DNA from: a virus
Lineage: Duplodnaviria; Heunggongvirae; Uroviricota; Caudoviricetes
Direction: 5' to 3' (one strand)
DNA length: 7,261 nucleotides
IMG/VR virus record: IMGVR_UViG_2778261276_000010
Span: 1-7,261 of that record
Numbering within the stretch: position 1 is the stretch's first letter; every line of letters begins with the position of its first letter. Positions 1 through 7,261 of the stretch are shown piece by piece. Both the position numbers and the translations under genes were made by a program. The notes beneath the pieces are model-generated. The model saw nothing but the letters and a program-made list of their open reading frames with translations. It was not told where the DNA came from and made no database searches.

Positions 1-186
1 ATGGCAGAAAGGTTCGTGAAAACGATGAAGGAAGACTACATCGCGTTCATGCCGAAACCGAATATAAGAACGGCATTGCATAATCTTGCAGTGGCGATCG
101 AACATTACAATGAAAACCATCCGCACAGTACGTTGGGTTATCGCTCTCCGCGAGAATATCGACGTCAGCGGGTAACGTTAACTTAA
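1..186 (+). CDS. IS3-family transposase (OrfB/integrase core), C-terminal fragment; 5' part lies outside the window
   Basis: The translation [21 protein letters not shown]...[22 protein letters not shown] resembles the C-terminus of IS2 InsD-type transposases (..[33 protein letters not shown]..) recalled from memory. The ATG at 1 is probably an internal Met. Confidence 0.7.
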
Positions 187-223
187 GATACACCCCCTGT
201 CTGGAAATAAGGGGGCAAGAACA
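1..223 (+). mobile_element. Right end of an IS3-family (IS2-like) insertion sequence, truncated by the window start; includes the transposase 3' end and a terminal inverted repeat
   Basis: Positions ~188-223 read TACACCCCCTGTCTGGAAATAAGGGGGCAAGAACA, which resembles the IS2 terminal inverted repeat as I remember it (..TGTCTGGAAATATAGGGGCAAATCCA). The exact end point is uncertain by a few bp. Confidence 0.55.
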
Positions 224-227
224 ATGA

Positions 228-971
228 TTAGATTCCCTGGTGAGTAAGAATTTTACTTTCTGAACTCCTCTGAGAGTATTGACTTGGAGAAACACCAAAA
301 TAACGTCTAAATACATAAGTAAAGTATGAGACACTGGCATAACCACAGACCTTAGCTACTTTACTAATAGGATAACAACGAGTGCTGAGTAAATATTCAG
401 CCATTTGCATCCTCTCATCAAGTAGGATCTTACTGAATGATACCCCCTCTTCTTTCAATTTCCTCTTTAGTAAACTTTCGCTGAGATATAATCTTGATGA
501 TATATCCTTAAGATGCCATGGTGCAGATAAATCCGTATGAATAATCGTTTTAACTTTAGCCCCTGTGCTTTTCAAACATCCAAACAGAAATACTCCAAAT
601 TGTTTTTCAGAAGAAAATGCAGAGAGACATGTAAAAGCAATAGACTCATCAAAAATTTCTATATATTCAGCACAGTGATTAGCCCAACTAATTAATCCTT
701 TAATTAAACTGAAGTCAGCAAAGTTTATTTTTAAATAAGATGGATATTCCCTACAATCAGAAATATCCCTTAAGTTATTAGCTTTCAAATAGCGACTAAT
801 AAACTCAGCGCCAAAATCCGCCACTATCACTCTTTCAGGATATGTCAGGAAAAAATCTCTATAGCTAGAGTCGACAAGTACAGATAAACCTCTATCCAGA
901 AACACACTCTCTTTTCCGAAATAAACATCAAAGGACTCCAAAATCAATATAACTGAACATGTAGTTGCCAT
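228..971 (-). CDS. AraC/XylS-family transcriptional regulator, AppY/YdeO/GadX-like
   Basis: The C-terminal HTH region (WHLKDISSRLYLSESLLKRKLKEEGVSFSKILLDERMQMAEYLL..CGYASVSYFTYVFRRYFGVSPSQY) closely resembles E. coli YdeO and AppY as I recall them, and the N-terminus MATTCSVILILESFD matches their MxxVCSV motif. I prefer the ATG at 971 (GGTGGA Shine-Dalgarno-like sequence ~5 nt upstream) over the ORF-track start at 980. Sampled 60-nt stretches are about one-third G+C. Confidence 0.8.
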   Translation of the reverse strand: MATTCSVILILESFDVYFGKESVFLDRGLSVLVDSSYRDFFLTYPERVIVADFGAEFISRYLKANNLRDISDCREYPSYLKINFADFSLIKGLISWANHCAEYIEIFDESIAFTCLSAFSSEKQFGVFLFGCLKSTGAKVKTIIHTDLSAPWHLKDISSRLYLSESLLKRKLKEEGVSFSKILLDERMQMAEYLLSTRCYPISKVAKVCGYASVSYFTYVFRRYFGVSPSQYSQRSSESKILTHQGI

Positions 972-1554
972 ATCATCCACCCAATTTAACTGAAACCAGG
1001 ATGAAGTATATGCATATAAAGTTCACTTTGCCAAACTTCAGTATAAAAAACCACATAAAAAATAGGGTGTGATAAAAAATACCGTAAAAATAAAGTAAAG
1101 GATTATAAATTCCGTTACAGTTACAAATGATACTAAAGAAACAATTCCTTAGAAAACCTTATTTACAGCCAATAAGTAAGACACTTATATGATATCAAGT
1201 TTTCATAAAACATAACTAGGCTAAATAGCTGCGCCTAATACCGCTACACTTTTGCCAGCCCATGTTTGCCTCCGGGTATTGACCCCTTCTCTACGCAACT
1301 TCAGTTCCCACCACCAACTTTGCGGCAGCTTTGTAGGATCAATGTCTAAAAGAATAATGGTGACCGATAAGAAAACGACTGAATAACTGCAGATTTTCGC
1401 TCGAAACCTTCCTGTCAGATCCATAGCGAATCAAGTGCTGAATGTCACAGTATCGAACAGAAAACAGTGACGATCTAACCCTTCAAGAATATTCTACGAT
1501 TGTTCTGTTTAGGAAAAGCAAGGCGGGAAGTCGGGAGATAAGTCATTGATAAAG

Positions 1555-1620
1555 TGGCGGAGAGAGGGGGATTTGCCCCCCCGGTAGAGTTGCCCCTACT
1601 CCGGTTTTCGAGACCGGTCC
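1555..1620 (-). other. 3' partial copy of tRNA-Ser (anticodon CGA): anticodon stem-loop, long variable arm, T-arm and acceptor 3' strand with CCA; probable att-site remnant of an integrated element
   Basis: The reverse complement reads GGACCGGTCTCGAAAACCGGAGTAGGGGCAACTCTACCGGGGGGGCAAATCCCCCTCTCTCCGCCA. It has a CCGGU/ACCGG anticodon stem with loop CUCGAAA, a long variable arm, a 5-bp GGGGG/CCCCC T-stem and a TCTCTCC-G-CCA 3' end. The 5' acceptor strand and D-arm are absent: upstream sequence is unrelated. The T-loop reads GGCAAAT rather than the conserved TTCRAAT. Confidence 0.65.
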
Positions 1621-1699
1621 AATCATCAAACGAAACATAAAATTAATTCACATTATGAGGAAAAGTATCTTTTTTGTACTTGTAAATTCAAAGGCTTAG

Positions 1700-2569
<870 letters not shown>

Positions 2570-2588
2570 GTCTTTAAGTGATAAGCAT

Positions 2589-2630
2589 AAACCGCAGCAC
2601 GATCTTCTTGCATACGACGTGCTACGGTTT
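2589..2630. terminator. Hairpin between the convergent GIY-YIG-like gene and pin; possible bidirectional terminator
   Basis: AAACCGCAGCACG (2589-2601), a 16-nt loop, then CGTGCTACGGTTT (2618-2630). This gives a 13-bp stem with one G-U wobble, followed by a U-rich run when read on the plus strand. The long loop makes it atypical. Confidence 0.35.
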
Positions 2631-3184
2631 CATTTATCTCCGACCGGAAACTTCTTATACAGTGTCGATATACCAACATCATAGATGATCGCCACCTTTT
2701 GGCGAGGAACGCCTGATGCAATTAATCGCCCGGCCTGCGCCCATTGTTCTGGTGTAAGTTTGGGACGACGTCCACCAATTCGTCCCTGTGCGCGAGCTGC
2801 TTCCAGTCCAGCTTTTGTTCGTTCAACAATCAGTTCACGCTCCATTTCAGCCAGGGCACCCATCACATGAAAGAAAAAGCGCCCCATTGGGGTACTGGTA
2901 TCAATTGAATCCGTCAGACTACGAAAGTTGATGCCTCGTTCGCGCAACTCCTCCACCAGCACGACAAGATGCCGCATACTGCGCCCCAGTCGGTCCAGTT
3001 TCCAGACCACCAGCGTGTCACCTGCCGATAATGTCCTGAGCAGCTTTTTCAGTCCTGGTCTGTCGGACTTTGTACCGCTTATCTTGTCTTCAAAAATCAG
3101 CTCACATCCTGCACAGTTCAGCGCATTACGTTGTAGATCGGTATTCTGGTCATTTGTTGATACACGTATATAGCCAATAAGCAT
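2630..3184 (-). CDS. pin: Serine-recombinase DNA invertase of the Pin/Gin/Hin/Cin family
   Basis: The translation from MLIGYIRVSTNDQNTDLQRNAL... is near-identical in layout to e14 PinE and Mu Gin as I recall them, with the catalytic Ser in the RVS motif, GRxxKL and a C-terminal HTH (IYDVGISTLYKK). Start chosen at the internal Met (ATG 3184..3182) with GGGGGA 8 nt upstream; the ORF-track start at 3220 adds 12 unlikely residues. Confidence 0.9.
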   Translation of the reverse strand: MLIGYIRVSTNDQNTDLQRNALNCAGCELIFEDKISGTKSDRPGLKKLLRTLSAGDTLVVWKLDRLGRSMRHLVVLVEELRERGINFRSLTDSIDTSTPMGRFFFHVMGALAEMERELIVERTKAGLEAARAQGRIGGRRPKLTPEQWAQAGRLIASGVPRQKVAIIYDVGISTLYKKFPVGDK

Positions 3185-3238
3185 GTTAAATCCCCCTGGT
3201 AAAAGCAGGAATGATGCCATTTGCTTGTTATTTCTTCA

Positions 3239-3264
3239 TTTTCATAAACGTTGGTTTGGGAGAA
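3239..3264. repeat. Invertase crossover site A (hix/gix-like 26-bp site, core TT at 3251-3252) containing a 14-bp inverted repeat (3251-3264)
   Basis: TTGGTTTGGGAGAA at 3251-3264 is the exact reverse complement of 5081-5094. The flanking half-site TTTTCATAAACG shows 8/12 dyad symmetry with the other half. Confidence 0.6.
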
Positions 3265-3600
3265 TTATCTCTGGCTGGCACTGCATCGGGTGTCATTGGT
3301 CTGAATGGGTATGTAACGATTCCGTTAATTATTTCAGGTTCCCGGAGAACACTGATTATTCAGTGGGGGCAGGCGAGATTTGGTGGGTCTGGTGGTGAAG
3401 ATGCCGGATATCTTAATGATTTTCCTTTTGCCTTTCCGTCAGCATGTTATGGAATGATAGTTAGTCATGTGGGGCATACACCTTCAGGCGCAGGAATCCT
3501 GTCGGCTTCTGCAATTACATCAAATCAGTTCCGCGGTTTTTCAAGCATAGCGACTGCTGCAAACGCTGTATTAGGTCGTTATATCGCTATAGGGGTGTAA
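3253..3600 (+). CDS. Alternative tail-fibre C-terminal cassette (Sv'-like), currently silent; lacks its own start and would fuse in frame to the constant N-terminal region after inversion
   Basis: The frame is open from the inverted repeat (GGT TTG GGA GAA, codon-aligned identically to the same sequence in the tail-fibre gene) to TAA at 3598-3600. The ORF-track N-terminal extension MMPFACYFFIFINV (3211-3252) is probably not translated. Confidence 0.6.
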   Translation, partial: GLGELSLAGTASGVIGLNGYVTIPLIISGSRRTLIIQWGQARFGGSGGEDAGYLNDFPFAFPSACYGMIVSHVGHTPSGAGILSASAITSNQFRGFSSIATAANAVLGRYIAIGV

Positions 3601-3601
3601 T

Positions 3602-4039
3602 ATGTTTTATAGTCCATCTTTAAACATTTTTGTGAATCCTGCACTTAAGGATGATTACATTAATGCAAATTCATGGCCAGATGATGCTCTGGCTGTCAGT
3701 GATGATGTTTATAATGAATTTGCAATAAATACGCCCCCAGATGGCAAAATTCGTGTTGCAGGAGAGAATGGATTACCCACATGGGCACTAATACCTTCAC
3801 CATCACATGAAGAACTTATTCAACAGGCAGAATCAGAAAGGCAATTATTGCTTAATCAGGCCAACGAATACATGAACAGTAAACAATGGCCCGGTAAAGC
3901 CGCTATTGATCGTCTGAAAGACGAGGAACTGGCGCAATATAATTTGTGGCTGGATTACCTGGACGCACTGGAGCTGGTTGATACCTCCAGTGTGCCAGAT
4001 ATTGAATGGCCTACGCCTCCGGCAGTTCAGGCCAGATGA
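3602..4039 (+). CDS. Tail-fibre assembly protein (Tfa/Mu U-like), partner of the silent cassette
   Basis: Begins 1 nt after the cassette stop. The C-terminus LDYLDALELVDTSSVPDIEWPTPP matches the conserved Tfa C-terminal motif, also seen in the other tfa copy. Confidence 0.8.
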   Translation: MFYSPSLNIFVNPALKDDYINANSWPDDALAVSDDVYNEFAINTPPDGKIRVAGENGLPTWALIPSPSHEELIQQAESERQLLLNQANEYMNSKQWPGKAAIDRLKDEELAQYNLWLDYLDALELVDTSSVPDIEWPTPPAVQAR

Positions 4040-4613
4040 CATCCGGCGCTGTGCTGGTATCTGTTGCCGTCACCGCGTCAATGTAATCCAGCACAGTGTT
4101 AAGTCGGGTGGTCTCTGCCTGCATCAGCTTCCGCCCGGCCTGCAATTTAAGTTGAATCAGACTAATGGAAGCCATTGCAGTATTAATCAGTGACTGACGC
4201 TGTACTTCTGCCGCGTCTACTGCGGCGCTATGCTGTGCCTCAGTATCGGTCACCCATTTCTTACCATCCCATTTATCGAATGGCGTTAACGGGGCGATAG
4301 TGGTTGTATTTTCAGGATAATCACCCGGAGCTGTGATTTCTTTGGCGTCTCCCGTTTCGGTGTTATAGACGATTTCACCGCGATGGTCTGGCACATATTC
4401 CCATGAGTTTAAATCCATCGAACGGCAGATAGCATAACCCGCCTTATGTATACCAGGTTCATCCAGACAGGAATATGCAGGGATACCGACACCAATGGCA
4501 AGATATTCATTTGAAGTAGAAATATATTCCCGAGTTTTACCATCATAGTTATAGACGGTAATATTCCCCGCCTTCGTGGCAATAAGCTCGCTATTTAATA
4601 CGGCGTTATCCAT
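4011..4613 (-). CDS. Tail-fibre assembly protein (Tfa), partner of the currently expressed tail-fibre variant
   Basis: 200 aa with C-terminus VLDYIDAVTATDTSTAPDVIWPELP, the same Tfa motif. The start overlaps the tail-fibre stop as TAATG, with GAGGG ~8 nt upstream. Its 3' end overlaps the other tfa convergently by 29 bp. Confidence 0.8.
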   Translation of the reverse strand: MDNAVLNSELIATKAGNITVYNYDGKTREYISTSNEYLAIGVGIPAYSCLDEPGIHKAGYAICRSMDLNSWEYVPDHRGEIVYNTETGDAKEITAPGDYPENTTTIAPLTPFDKWDGKKWVTDTEAQHSAAVDAAEVQRQSLINTAMASISLIQLKLQAGRKLMQAETTRLNTVLDYIDAVTATDTSTAPDVIWPELPEA

Positions 4614-5383
4614 TATGCAGCCCTCACGATATAGTTAAATGCAATATTTCGTGGACGGGTTTCACTCCCGCCAGTATTACCGATACTCCCTCGTGAATGA
4701 AGTGTCGGTGATGGGATCAGACTCCCTCCTGTATTTGTGGCATCAAGTCCCCGTCCTTGTGTGTATGTCTTTTTGAAAATCGTAGCCAGTTCCCATTCAT
4801 CTTTTGTGTCGTAACCATCATTGGCAACAACAATATGGCGGTGTTTTTCCAGCATCCCTGTCTGAATGCTCAATAAAACACGTCCTGCATCAATACCGCG
4901 CCCGTCATCCCAGCCACGAATAAACTCACCACGTAAATCAGGCAATTTATTTGTCGGATAAGCCTTTGCCAGTTCCGGGTATTCTTCAGCAGAAAAAGCC
5001 GCACCGTTGCATTTCAGCCAGCCTGTTGGCGGTGTGGCTGAAGGCCATGGAACAGGCACACCAACAGGTAATGCAGAGCCTTCTCCCAAACCAAGGTTTT
5101 CGAGAGCCGTTTGCACAGTGCCATCCGATTTGATATCGCCAAACGGATTCTTGCGGCTTAACAGCAGCGCGCGAAGTGCGGTAAGTAACTGGTCGTGCCG
5201 CCCCTTCTCCAGGCTGGCACCGGATGCCTCCACCACGCTGCAAAGTTCCTCCTGCAACATGTCAAAGTAGTCATCATCCAGATCGGTGGCAGGTGTGCCG
5301 GTCTGGGGGTTACCACGGGTAAAACCGTTCTTACCCGCGCCGAACTTATCCTTCTGCGCGGTTTTCGTGTCTATACGATGCAT
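4613..5383 (-). CDS. Short tail-fibre protein: constant N-terminal region (codons 1-101, outside the invertible segment) fused to a variable C-terminal region with a phage tail-collar-like motif
   Basis: 256 aa. The C-terminal part (..[47 protein letters not shown]..) resembles the phage tail-collar domain. GGAG lies 7 nt upstream of the ATG. The 14-bp inverted repeat falls at codons 98-101 (..LGLGE). Confidence 0.8.
5081..5106. repeat. Invertase crossover site B (hix/gix-like 26-bp site, core AA at 5093-5094) containing the 14-bp inverted repeat (5081-5094)
   Basis: TTCTCCCAAACC-AA-GGTTTTCGAGAG has half-sites with 9/12 dyad symmetry and resembles hixL (TTCTTGAAAACCAAGGTTTTTGATAA) and gix sites from memory. 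Confidence 0.65.
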
Positions 5384-5386
5384 GGA

Positions 5387-5536
5387 TTACTCCGGATATC
5401 CTCGCTGCTGCCGTGATTGACCAGGCTTGTAGGACTTCCAGCCTTCACCTTTGTGATTTTCACAGTAGCCAGATGGGTCTGTTGTGGTGTTGCGACAGCC
5501 GCGAACACGGCAAGCCTTTGGTGTGCGCGGTGGCAT
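5387..5536 (-). pseudogene. 49-codon ORF resembling the N-terminus of a phage HNH endonuclease; probable remnant at a deletion junction
   Basis: My own translation is MPPRTPKACRVRGCRNTTTDPSGYCENHKGEGWKSYKPGQSRQQRGYPE. The C-x4-C...YC..H pattern followed by QRGY is typical of the start of phage HNH endonucleases (~110 aa) that sit next to terminase genes. Here the ORF stops 3 nt before the tail-fibre ATG. Not in the supplied ORF track. Confidence 0.4.
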
Positions 5537-5599
5537 ATTCACTCCCTAAAAAACGTATAGCATTATCGCAGACACTTAATGAATGCCTGCTGAATGCCA

Positions 5600-5803
5600 C
5601 TAATCGTCGAGTTGCAATACACCGTGCTCAAGTGACTCTGAGTAAGCGATCAGCCCTGTGTATTCAGGGATAATCTCGCCATCATCCGCTTCGAATTCCG
5701 GGATTGTACCAGTGGTGATGGTGTATTGGGGCTGACCATCTTCTTTCGCGAATGCTGCTAGGTCTTCAATCTGCTTAGCTGTAAGAACTACTGTCATGCT
5801 CAT
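5600..5803 (-). CDS. Small acidic hypothetical protein (65-67 aa)
   Basis: ORF with GAGG 8 nt upstream of the second ATG (5797), so the true start may be 5797. No recognisable motif. Confidence 0.5.
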   Translation of the reverse strand: MSMTVVLTAKQIEDLAAFAKEDGQPQYTITTGTIPEFEADDGEIIPEYTGLIAYSESLEHGVLQLDD

Positions 5804-5815
5804 ACCTCAGTTGTT

Positions 5816-5838
5816 AAAAAGCCCCGCTATTGCGAGGC
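5816..5838 (-). terminator. Rho-independent terminator downstream of the lysis cassette
   Basis: The minus-strand transcript reads GCCUCGC-AAUA-GCGGGGC-UUUUU: a 7-bp GC-rich stem with one G-U pair, a 4-nt loop and a U5 tail, 24 nt after the stop of the membrane-protein gene. Confidence 0.45.
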
Positions 5839-5861
5839 TATGATTGACTAAAGTGATGCTG

Positions 5862-6137
5862 TCAGGTGTGGGTCCAAATGAATTTAACAATCCCAATAAT
5901 GCTAGCCAGAACGCCAAAACCAAAAATAAATTGACCACATACCCCTATGATTCCCGATGCAATGGCACCGGCATTTGTCTGAGCATTTTCGTTTATGCTC
6001 GCCCCCACTAGATACATAATCAAACCAACTATGAGAGATGCGATAATCCAATGTTCCACTGCTAATACAATTACAATGCTCAAAATATCTGCTAAACCAT
6101 CACTATGACCACTCACTGCATATCCTTGCTTTGACAT
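5862..6137 (-). CDS. Small integral membrane protein (91 aa, 2-3 predicted hydrophobic helices), function unknown
   Basis: Hydrophobic stretches ILSIVIVLAVEHWIIASLIVGLIMYLVG and GAIASGIIGVCGQFIFGFGVLASIIGIV. Lies immediately downstream of the spanin genes. Confidence 0.55.
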   Translation of the reverse strand: MSKQGYAVSGHSDGLADILSIVIVLAVEHWIIASLIVGLIMYLVGASINENAQTNAGAIASGIIGVCGQFIFGFGVLASIIGIVKFIWTHT

Positions 6138-6203
6138 TTGAAAAATTCATCACTGGATTATAATTGTTTACACCCTTCATAGTCGTTCGAATATGATAAA
6201 AAA

Positions 6204-6740
6204 TCAATTGTGGGGGATAGCGTTATTTGACTCTCTCAACGAGTCGTAAATACGTTCACACGTCATCCCGGCGGTGTAGCGTTCGTCAGCGATTCCAGCA
6301 TAACGTTTAGCTTCTGCTGCAATATCTCCGAGCATGTCGGCGAACATTCCGGCGTCGGCGTCGGTTGTTTTGCTTCGGACGGCAGCGGCAAGATCAGCGG
6401 TGTGCTTTGCGGCGTCCAGGCGTGCGGCAAGCTTTGTTGCTTCGGTACGCAACTGGCTAACAGTGGCAGACAGGCCAGCAGCAGTGGCAGCAGATTTAGC
6501 GGCTTGTGCTTGTGCATCTTTTACAGCCTCATCACGGGCAATTATGCGCCCTTGTTCAATCCAGCGTGCGGCAGTCTGCGCGTTCGCTTCCTGTGAAGAT
6601 TCCATGCTATTGTGGTCAGCCCACTTCTTTTGCCAGCCCCGCTCACTCCAGATGTTCCCGACAAGAAATGCACCAGCCAACATCAGCAAAACAATGATTG
6701 TTTTCCACCGCGCCTGAACAAAAGCAAAGACCGCTGTCAT
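6204..6740 (-). CDS. Rz-like i-spanin (inner-membrane spanin subunit)
   Basis: Has an N-terminal transmembrane helix ([20 protein letters not shown]) followed by an Ala/Gln/Lys-rich, coiled-coil-like periplasmic domain. The start overlaps the endolysin stop as ATGA. It contains an embedded lipoprotein ORF. Confidence 0.8.
6263..6517 (-). CDS. Rz1-like o-spanin (outer-membrane lipoprotein), embedded in the +1 frame of Rz
   Basis: Signal peptide [22 protein letters not shown] with lipobox L-A-S-C, then a proline-rich mature region ([21 protein letters not shown]). GAGG lies 9 nt upstream of the ATG. Entirely inside the Rz ORF in a different frame. Confidence 0.7.
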
Positions 6741-7261
6741 ACCAGCAACGCCGCCCGCGCTTTGTTATAACGACTATTTCTGTCAGCCAGTCCATTCTGG
6801 CCACCGTTGATGATCTGCGTTACACGGACAACATCACCTGAATACATCAGACAACCACGTAATGTGAAATACCATGCAGCAGAACGGGCTGCATGTTTCT
6901 CCTGTGTCAGCAACTCTGGTGTGCTGATCAGATCCAACTTCAGCGCCGCACCGCATTTGGCGTAGTTCTCGCGGCCGGTGATTTGAAGCAGGCCACGACC
7001 GCGATATTTCCAGCCGTCACCCTGGCTGTTATTCCCCATGCGGTCACCATAAACCAGATTGGCTATTTGCGGCTGGTGGGCTACCTGCTTACCATCGACA
7101 CGCCCCAGCATTTCACACTGATAAGGCGTCAGGCGTTTACTAAAGGTTTTCTTCAGCCCGTCTACCGAGTAGTTGAAGCTTTCCACCAGCGAGGTAAAAC
7201 CAGCAGATTCATGCCCAACTTGTGCAATGAACATGGCCTGATCGTTAACTGCTGTGATTCC
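6737..7261 (-). CDS. Phage endolysin, glycoside hydrolase family 19 (chitinase-like lysozyme); 5' end lies beyond the window
   Basis: Motifs [15 protein letters not shown] (two Glu about 9 residues apart) and [15 protein letters not shown] match the GH19 signature. The frame stays open upstream of the Met at 7234 to the window edge (..[19 protein letters not shown]), so the real start is probably off-window. Confidence 0.85.

Follow-up and report, generated by a model that had tools for sequence, protein, structure and literature searches.

An e14/SfV-type prophage arm in which a single internal deletion has very probably joined an HNH endonuclease gene to the end of ymfQ

Prophages of the SfV/SfI/e14 type combine lambdoid regulation and lysis genes with an HK97-like head and a Mu-like contractile tail. 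The intact prophage locus of E. coli 2018-05-5CC (NZ_AP027886), here called L001, is of this SfV/e14 type. Its late genes begin with two holins, a GH19 endolysin, a DUF2514 protein, ORFs of 91 and 65 aa, a 116-aa HNH protein, a P27-type terS and terL. They continue with ymfR, the portal, an HK97-type protease, the major capsid protein, connector and closure proteins, the tail terminator, the sheath and the tube, and end with the tape measure, a DNA circularisation protein, the baseplate (gp45/46/47-like), ymfQ, the fibre gene and two tfa genes. L001 and the intact SfV/SfI/SfII/SfIV-type elements all carry cos and the complete module of 17-18 kb for packaging, head, tail and baseplate.

Defective members of the family are well described. 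In K-12, internal deletions have disabled e14 and left chimeric genes behind: ymfN combines a replication protein with terminase, and a second deletion is marked by the stretch from beeE to jayE. The e14 element has lost the lysis cassette, the HNH gene and terS, and has kept ymfQ along with fragments of terL, portal and baseplate J. The element in E. coli G4/9 (NZ_CP060073; L003) has an internal deletion of its own, in which terL' is joined to baseplate J', and it keeps ymfQ, terS and the full HNH gene.

We analysed a stretch of 7,261 nucleotides (the window), which lacks the entire 17-18 kb module and cos but outside this gap follows the gene order of L001 and the intact SfV/SfI/SfII/SfIV-type phages. 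It is very probably one arm of a defective SfV/SfI/e14-type prophage, in which codon 47 of the HNH gene and the last codons of ymfQ have been brought together by one deletion of about 17.8 kb. The features on which this reading draws are as follows.

2630..3184, minus strand: pinE-type serine invertase, 184 aa; 95.7% identity to K-12 PinE over 184 aa
3211..3600, plus strand: ORF for an alternative fibre C-terminus; starts just outside the P segment and runs across the left crossover site
3246..5099: invertible P segment, with inverted crossover sites at its ends (3246-3264 and 5081-5099)
3602..4039, plus strand: tail-fibre-assembly gene, inside the P segment
4011..4613, minus strand: tail-fibre-assembly gene, inside the P segment
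4613..5383, minus strand: tail-fibre gene, 256 aa; Pfam Collar, 1.9e-15
5387..5536, minus strand: HNH'-'ymfQ fusion ORF, 49 codons from ATG (51 aa if a GTG at 5542 is the start)
5390..5393, minus strand: Shine-Dalgarno GGAG of the fibre gene, 6 nt upstream of its ATG; kept from the 3' end of ymfQ
5397..5399: deletion junction, a 3-bp microhomology (ATA) common to both parental sequences
5600..5803, minus strand: acidic ORF of 65-67 aa; phrog_9518, 1.7e-40
5862..6137, minus strand: hydrophobic ORF of 91 aa; phrog_28582, full length, 3.5e-54
6204..6740, minus strand: Rz-like inner-membrane spanin, DUF2514, 178 aa, intact; Pfam DUF2514, 1e-41
6263..6517, minus strand: Rz1-like outer-membrane lipoprotein spanin ORF; phrog_11621 'Rz-like spanin', 2e-6
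6737..>7261, minus strand: GH19-type endolysin; Pfam Glyco_hydro_19, 1e-7; the C-terminal ~174-175 of 205 codons lie in the window

An earlier sequence-only reading of this DNA had named the endolysin, the spanins, the small ORFs, the 49-codon ORF and the fibre gene, and each is present on the minus strand with the same coordinates. The endolysin gene is cut by the end of the window, so that its N-terminus lies beyond position 7261; the part inside is 100% identical in DNA to the gene for the 205-aa 'glycoside hydrolase family 19 protein' of L001. The Rz1-like ORF is embedded in another frame of Rz, and its translation has a signal peptide, a lipobox (LLAS|C) and a proline-rich mature part. 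In its architecture the pair thus corresponds to an embedded two-component Rz/Rz1 spanin, and it is predicted to act as one. Two small ORFs do stand between the lysis genes and the fibre gene, as had been noted, but they are native neighbours of Rz and HNH in intact relatives and not debris of the deletion. The 91-aa ORF lies between Rz and HNH in all intact relatives listed, and the 65-67-aa ORF occupies the equivalent position next to HNH. Between the lysis genes and the fibre gene the interval holds no packaging or morphogenesis gene. Upstream of the break the window is 100% identical to L001, whose late region has the order of the SfV/SfI/e14 type (holins, endolysin, Rz/Rz1, HNH, cos, P27-type terS, terL); in the window that order stops at HNH codon 47. 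Beyond the break it has the distal arm of the same type, with an invertible-C-terminus fibre, two tfa genes and Pin; of ymfQ, which is Mu gp48-like, only the last codons are left.

The 49-codon ORF had been taken for the N-terminal part of an HNH endonuclease, and this is borne out by 47/47 identity to residues 1-47 of the 116-aa HNH protein and by an alignment to positions 17-68 of the 175-position PHROG HNH profile. The Pfam HNH domain (PF01844) of the full protein spans residues 66-112 and is absent from the ORF, for which there is no Pfam match. What remains is the Cys-rich N-terminal stretch of 47 residues, without the catalytic beta-beta-alpha-metal domain that defines an HNH endonuclease. 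The ORF consists of HNH residues 1-46, a Tyr common to both parents, and Pro-Glu-stop from ymfQ. It is a truncated HNH gene and not a member of a full-length small-protein family, and it should be annotated as an HNH'-'ymfQ pseudogene fusion.

The end points of the deletion were mapped by megablast of window positions 5200-7261 against 5,426 complete E. coli genomes; the whole window was also compared. In ten of these genomes there is a 99.8-100% match to positions 5397-7261, where a gene annotated 'HNH endonuclease' covers the small ORF, and in none does the match extend across position 5397. Base by base, 5397-7261 equals L001 20001-21865 (100%, zero mismatches), and the window sequence ending at 5399 corresponds to the L001 sequence ending at 2208. 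Leftward from 5399 in steps of 100 nt, identity to L001 falls from 99% to 96% and then to 93%, and it is lost at about 5100, where the invertible segment starts. The difference in offset between the two blocks amounts to 17,795 bp missing relative to L001. That interval of L001 contains the HNH catalytic domain, cos, terS, terL, the portal, the protease and the major capsid gene, as well as the connector, the closure proteins, the sheath, the tube, the tape measure, the baseplate and all of ymfQ except its last codons.

At the level of single bases, the parental HNH gene reads ...CGA GGA TAC GGA ACA... and the parental end of ymfQ reads ...TTT AAA TAT CCG GAG TAA, followed by TCC ATG. The junction in the window reads ...CGA GGA TAT CCG GAG TAA TCC ATG. 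Since the fusion is in frame with ymfQ, the 49-codon ORF stops at ymfQ's own stop codon. The sequence-only reading was exact in placing this stop 3 nt before the fibre ATG (TAA at 5389..5387, TCC at 5386..5384, ATG at 5383..5381); the same gap natively separates ymfQ from the fibre gene. The Shine-Dalgarno sequence of the fibre gene is likewise identical to L001 2201-2204, ahead of the fibre ATG there. Alignment with an intact relative thus fixes both end points to the base, at 5397 on the HNH side and at 5399 on the ymfQ/fibre side. The proposed deletion from inside the HNH gene to just upstream of the fibre gene is correct at the HNH end; its distal end lies within the last ymfQ codons and not in intergenic sequence. 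The broader proposal, that a large internal deletion brought the lysis cassette to the fibre gene, is supported by these end points and by the 17,795 bp that separate them in L001.

The genomic contexts of the exact fibre and Rz proteins indicate that the arrangement in the window is the derived state. These were assessed in 24 blocks, among 985 for the fibre and 567 for Rz. The exact fibre protein has ymfQ and a full tail/baseplate module upstream in all nine of the matches listed (of 985 blocks). The exact Rz protein stands downstream of holins and endolysin in all ten of the matches listed (of 567 blocks), and is followed by the 91- and 65-aa ORFs, HNH116, terS, terL and portal in nine of those ten. 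The deleted arrangement was not found around either protein; the matches listed are non-deleted or differently deleted contexts.

The two arms are most similar to different strains. For window 1-5399 the strain is G4/9 (99.9% identity), in a match that stops at the end of ymfQ, and for the right arm it is 2018-05-5CC (100%). This might suggest that illegitimate recombination made the junction from two different members of the family in one chromosome, or from an infecting phage and a prophage already resident, so that it would mark a chromosomal rearrangement or a hybrid element. In keeping with that, the 5' end of the HNH gene in G4/9 itself is just 79% identical to that of the window, a value that also rules out derivation of the right arm from a G4/9-type remnant, and many E. 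coli genomes carry several prophages of the family, with up to five matching places per genome. We nonetheless regard such an origin as very unlikely. The evidence can be summarised as (i) intact L001 has both types of arm at one locus: it adjoins yagP'/paoD-paoA/yagU and carries pinE and the LEM-3-like GIY-YIG protein WP_000355484.1, and both this identical protein and the yagP/pao locus are common to L001 and G4/9; (ii) window 1599-3264 is 96% identical to the pinE/GIY-YIG region of L001; (iii) L021, a remnant with several deletions and with truncated holin and endolysin genes, also has an L001-type lysis arm at the pao locus; (iv) the order and orientation of the arms are exactly those of one prophage; (v) a deletion between distant prophages would take out chromosomal genes. 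Points (i) to (iii) assign both arms to a single prophage type and a single locus, with the order and orientation that the window shows, and the occurrence of pinE and this GIY-YIG gene in L001, at yagP'/paoD, speaks for one deletion within one prophage. Exchange of P segments, which are usually mosaic, suffices to account for the differing best matches. Among complete E. coli genomes, none has a right arm of the L001 type together with a left arm that exceeds 99% identity to the window across the P segment, and the ancestor must therefore have been a mosaic of both. Among phage records, SfI, SfII and SfIV of Shigella match window 5200-5399 at 98-98.5% with their fibre/baseplate-wedge boundary.

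We propose that the single deletion occurred by illegitimate recombination inside one prophage, which would have been integrated at the thrW/yagP-pao locus, either through replication slippage or through microhomology-mediated end joining. The parental break points share no in-register homology longer than 3 bp, and the longest k-mer shared within ±100 bp is 6, which rules out homologous recombination between repeats. Illegitimate recombination is suggested by the ATA alone at the join, by the lack of a Pin-like site or longer repeat, and by the distance of about 280 bp to cos. This pattern supports the mechanism weakly, as about 5% of random junctions would have at least 3 bp of microhomology. 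An in-frame join would be expected by chance in one case out of three, and so calls for no selective explanation. Had part of the ancestor already been deleted, as is the case in G4/9, the event would have removed less than 17.8 kb.

A phage enzyme could in principle have made the deletion, either Pin acting at a pseudo-site or the terminase/HNH machinery cutting at cos, with subsequent end joining. A Pin-type invertase and its sites do lie 300 bp from the junction, and the HNH/cos/terminase region provides one end point. The break points, however, match the 26-nt crossover site at only 11-13 of 26 positions, no better than shuffled sequences (mean 12.3-12.9), so a Pin pseudo-site is discounted, and the real crossover sites at 3246-3264 and 5081-5099 are both intact. 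A deletion end at cos is discounted too, since about 280 bp separate cos (L001 19714-19723) from the break in the HNH gene (20001). Identical end points were not found to recur in independent lineages, and involvement of either enzyme seems extremely unlikely.

The junction also has to be weighed as a product of assembly or sequencing, that is, of a chimeric contig or read. Both sides of the exact junction are covered in none of the 5,426 complete E. coli genomes; its 36- and 21-nt patterns have no match in GTDB representative genomes, nor has the 21-nt pattern in JGI metagenomes or IMG/VR. Neither the 49-aa nor the 51-aa fusion product is on record in the gene-position index. Assemblers, though, mis-join at shared repeats, and here there are 3 bp in register and at most a shared 6-mer within ±100 bp. 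Gene order, strand and even the reading frame are kept across the join, and analogous deletions are well documented in e14, G4/9 and L021. An artefact is accordingly highly improbable.

The loss of cos follows from the position of the deletion. In SfI, a 10-nt cos overhang, TGCCCGCCCC, lies between the HNH gene and terS (PMC3636060). The same decamer, TGCCCGCCCC, is found at L001 19714-19723, inside the deleted interval, and is missing from the window. With cos and the packaging, head and tail genes gone, the element would be unable to make virions or to be packaged by a related helper. Since the 17,795 bp of L001 that hold the packaging and morphogenesis module are absent between window positions 5397 and 5399, the element is not a functional member of the SfV/SfI/e14 type. 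It should be called a defective derivative, without cos, packaging, head or tail genes in this arm.

The fibre gene had been read as a lambda-type side tail fibre. This does not hold: the protein is a baseplate-attached fibre of a Mu-like contractile tail (StfP/gp53-like, with a collar domain). It has a constant N-terminal part of ~95 codons (5099..5383), and its variable C-terminus is encoded within the invertible segment. Over residues 1-105 it shares 98% identity with K-12 StfP; the C-terminus shares 61% with StfE. The inverted repeat that bounds the P segment reads AAACGTTGGTTTGGGAGAA / TTCTCCCAAACCAAGGTTT, with both crossover sites intact, and the two copies match the published e14 crossover repeat, TTGGTTTGGGAGAAGG (PMC12529663). 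A Caudo_TAP domain was found for the assembly genes, with identities of 86.5% to TfaE and 51% to TfaP. The same invertase is annotated pinE in G4/9. An invertase gene beside inverted crossover sites that lie inside the fibre gene is the arrangement of the Pin/Gin/Cin/Hin systems, and the segment is predicted from this layout to be switchable. The suggestion that the remnant keeps lysis, fibre-switching and cargo functions can be upheld in terms of intact reading frames and crossover sites, which would be compatible with those functions; the DNA of Rz, of Rz1 and of the endolysin portion inside the window is the same as in an intact prophage.

If the late promoter and the antiterminator upstream are still present, transcription of the late (lysis) operon may continue into its distal part, the fibre, assembly and Pin genes. 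The interval from Rz to the fibre gene has no detected sigma-70-like promoter, and terminator-like sites there are not above chance, which is consistent with the fibre genes forming the distal part of the late transcript. The window contains no tRNA or Rfam family.

In K-12, the phase-variable fibre of the e14 P segment has been reported as a receptor-masking anti-phage factor against phage T2 (PMC12529663). It is conceivable, if improbable, that the present remnant is maintained and not just decaying, as a compact module of lysis, fibre, tfa and Pin genes under a late promoter whose tail-less fibre masks a receptor against phage. Were this so, the preserved ribosome-binding site of the fibre gene and the in-frame stop would reflect selection for fibre expression. 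The wider relevance of the locus is that it provides another tail-less prophage with an intact Pin-switchable fibre module.

The closest described systems frame this deletion on both sides. L001 is the intact counterpart, with lysis-arm DNA 100% identical to that of the window and the same GIY-YIG cargo. G4/9 has the same left arm, comprising an IS remnant, an AraC gene, the GIY-YIG gene, pinE, the P segment and the fibre, whereas its lysis cassette is of the essD/rrrD/rzpD type, unlike that of the window. K-12 e14 belongs to the same family and retained the same arm, namely ymfQ, an StfP-type fibre, an invertible P segment, two tfa genes and pinE, with a nuclease cargo gene beyond pinE as in the window. 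The cargo itself differs, being a GIY-YIG gene with an AraC regulator in the window and mcrA in e14, as does the locus, since close relatives of the window lie at yagP/pao and e14 lies at icd. The losses differ as well: the window kept the lysis cassette that e14 lost, and lost in one step all that lies between HNH codon 47 and the end of ymfQ. Decay of prophages through internal deletions is well known, and the window adds one precisely mapped case. It is one more independent deletion allele of the e14/SfV family, with end points of its own, and an instance of ordinary, textbook prophage decay.

Family members carry independent internal deletions whose end points differ (L003, the defective prophage of E. 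coli G4/9, 25961-28205; L023, 8671-11423; L021, a further remnant, 9276-14244), which suggests that the structural module decays frequently and in a manner that is not site-specific. The deletions take the following forms.

E. coli G4/9: internal deletion, terL'::baseplate-J'
K-12 e14 (cryptic prophage): internal deletions, ymfN and beeE/jayE
L021: internal deletions, holin and endolysin genes truncated, plus a terL fusion

The called length of the large terminase gene also varies among otherwise intact relatives. It is called as 498 aa instead of 577 aa in L013, L017 and L022 (12176-12410), where a 230-nt gap follows terS; a frameshift in terL, or another start site, could account for the shorter call.

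Two small ORFs lie between the spanin gene Rz and the HNH endonuclease gene, within window 5600..6137.

91-aa hydrophobic ORF, phrog_28582
65-aa acidic ORF, phrog_9518

Both were found between Rz and HNH in all intact relatives seen and are a conserved component of the late region.

At the prophage end, strains with a common prophage arm vary in the cargo carried between the LEM-3-like GIY-YIG gene and yagP'/paoD. The slot and the gene that borders it are located as follows.

Window 1..1745; L003 19977-21795; L024 2973-6022; L004 13638-20630: cargo slot, GIY-YIG to yagP'/paoD
Window 1796..2569: gene with LEM-3-like GIY-YIG nuclease domain (phrog_5356, 2e-143)

The window, G4/9 and O157:H7 hold an AraC regulator in DNA of 32-35% GC together with an IS3-family remnant, and strain 2018-05-5CC, host of an intact relative, holds a retron Ec67-type reverse transcriptase. 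L021 has an autotransporter, and further strains have an integrase with CTD6/MC2/AAA_23 genes. The slot looks like a hot spot for cargo or defence genes. In the window, some 760 nt without a long ORF (981..1745) separate the AraC and GIY-YIG genes; searches of this interval for tRNAs and Rfam families found none.

Comparison with e14 of K-12 bears on both the nuclease and the fibre genes. The McrA restriction endonuclease lies just past the invertase gene pinE in e14, whereas the window has the GIY-YIG gene in that place, which may be an alternative nuclease cargo. The invertible P segment (window 3246..5099) lies in the orientation that joins a StfP-type constant N-terminus to a StfE-like C-terminus, opposite to that of the K-12 reference. 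For e14, flipping the P segment has been reported to yield a chimeric fibre protein that blocks adsorption of phage T2 (2025, PMC12529663).
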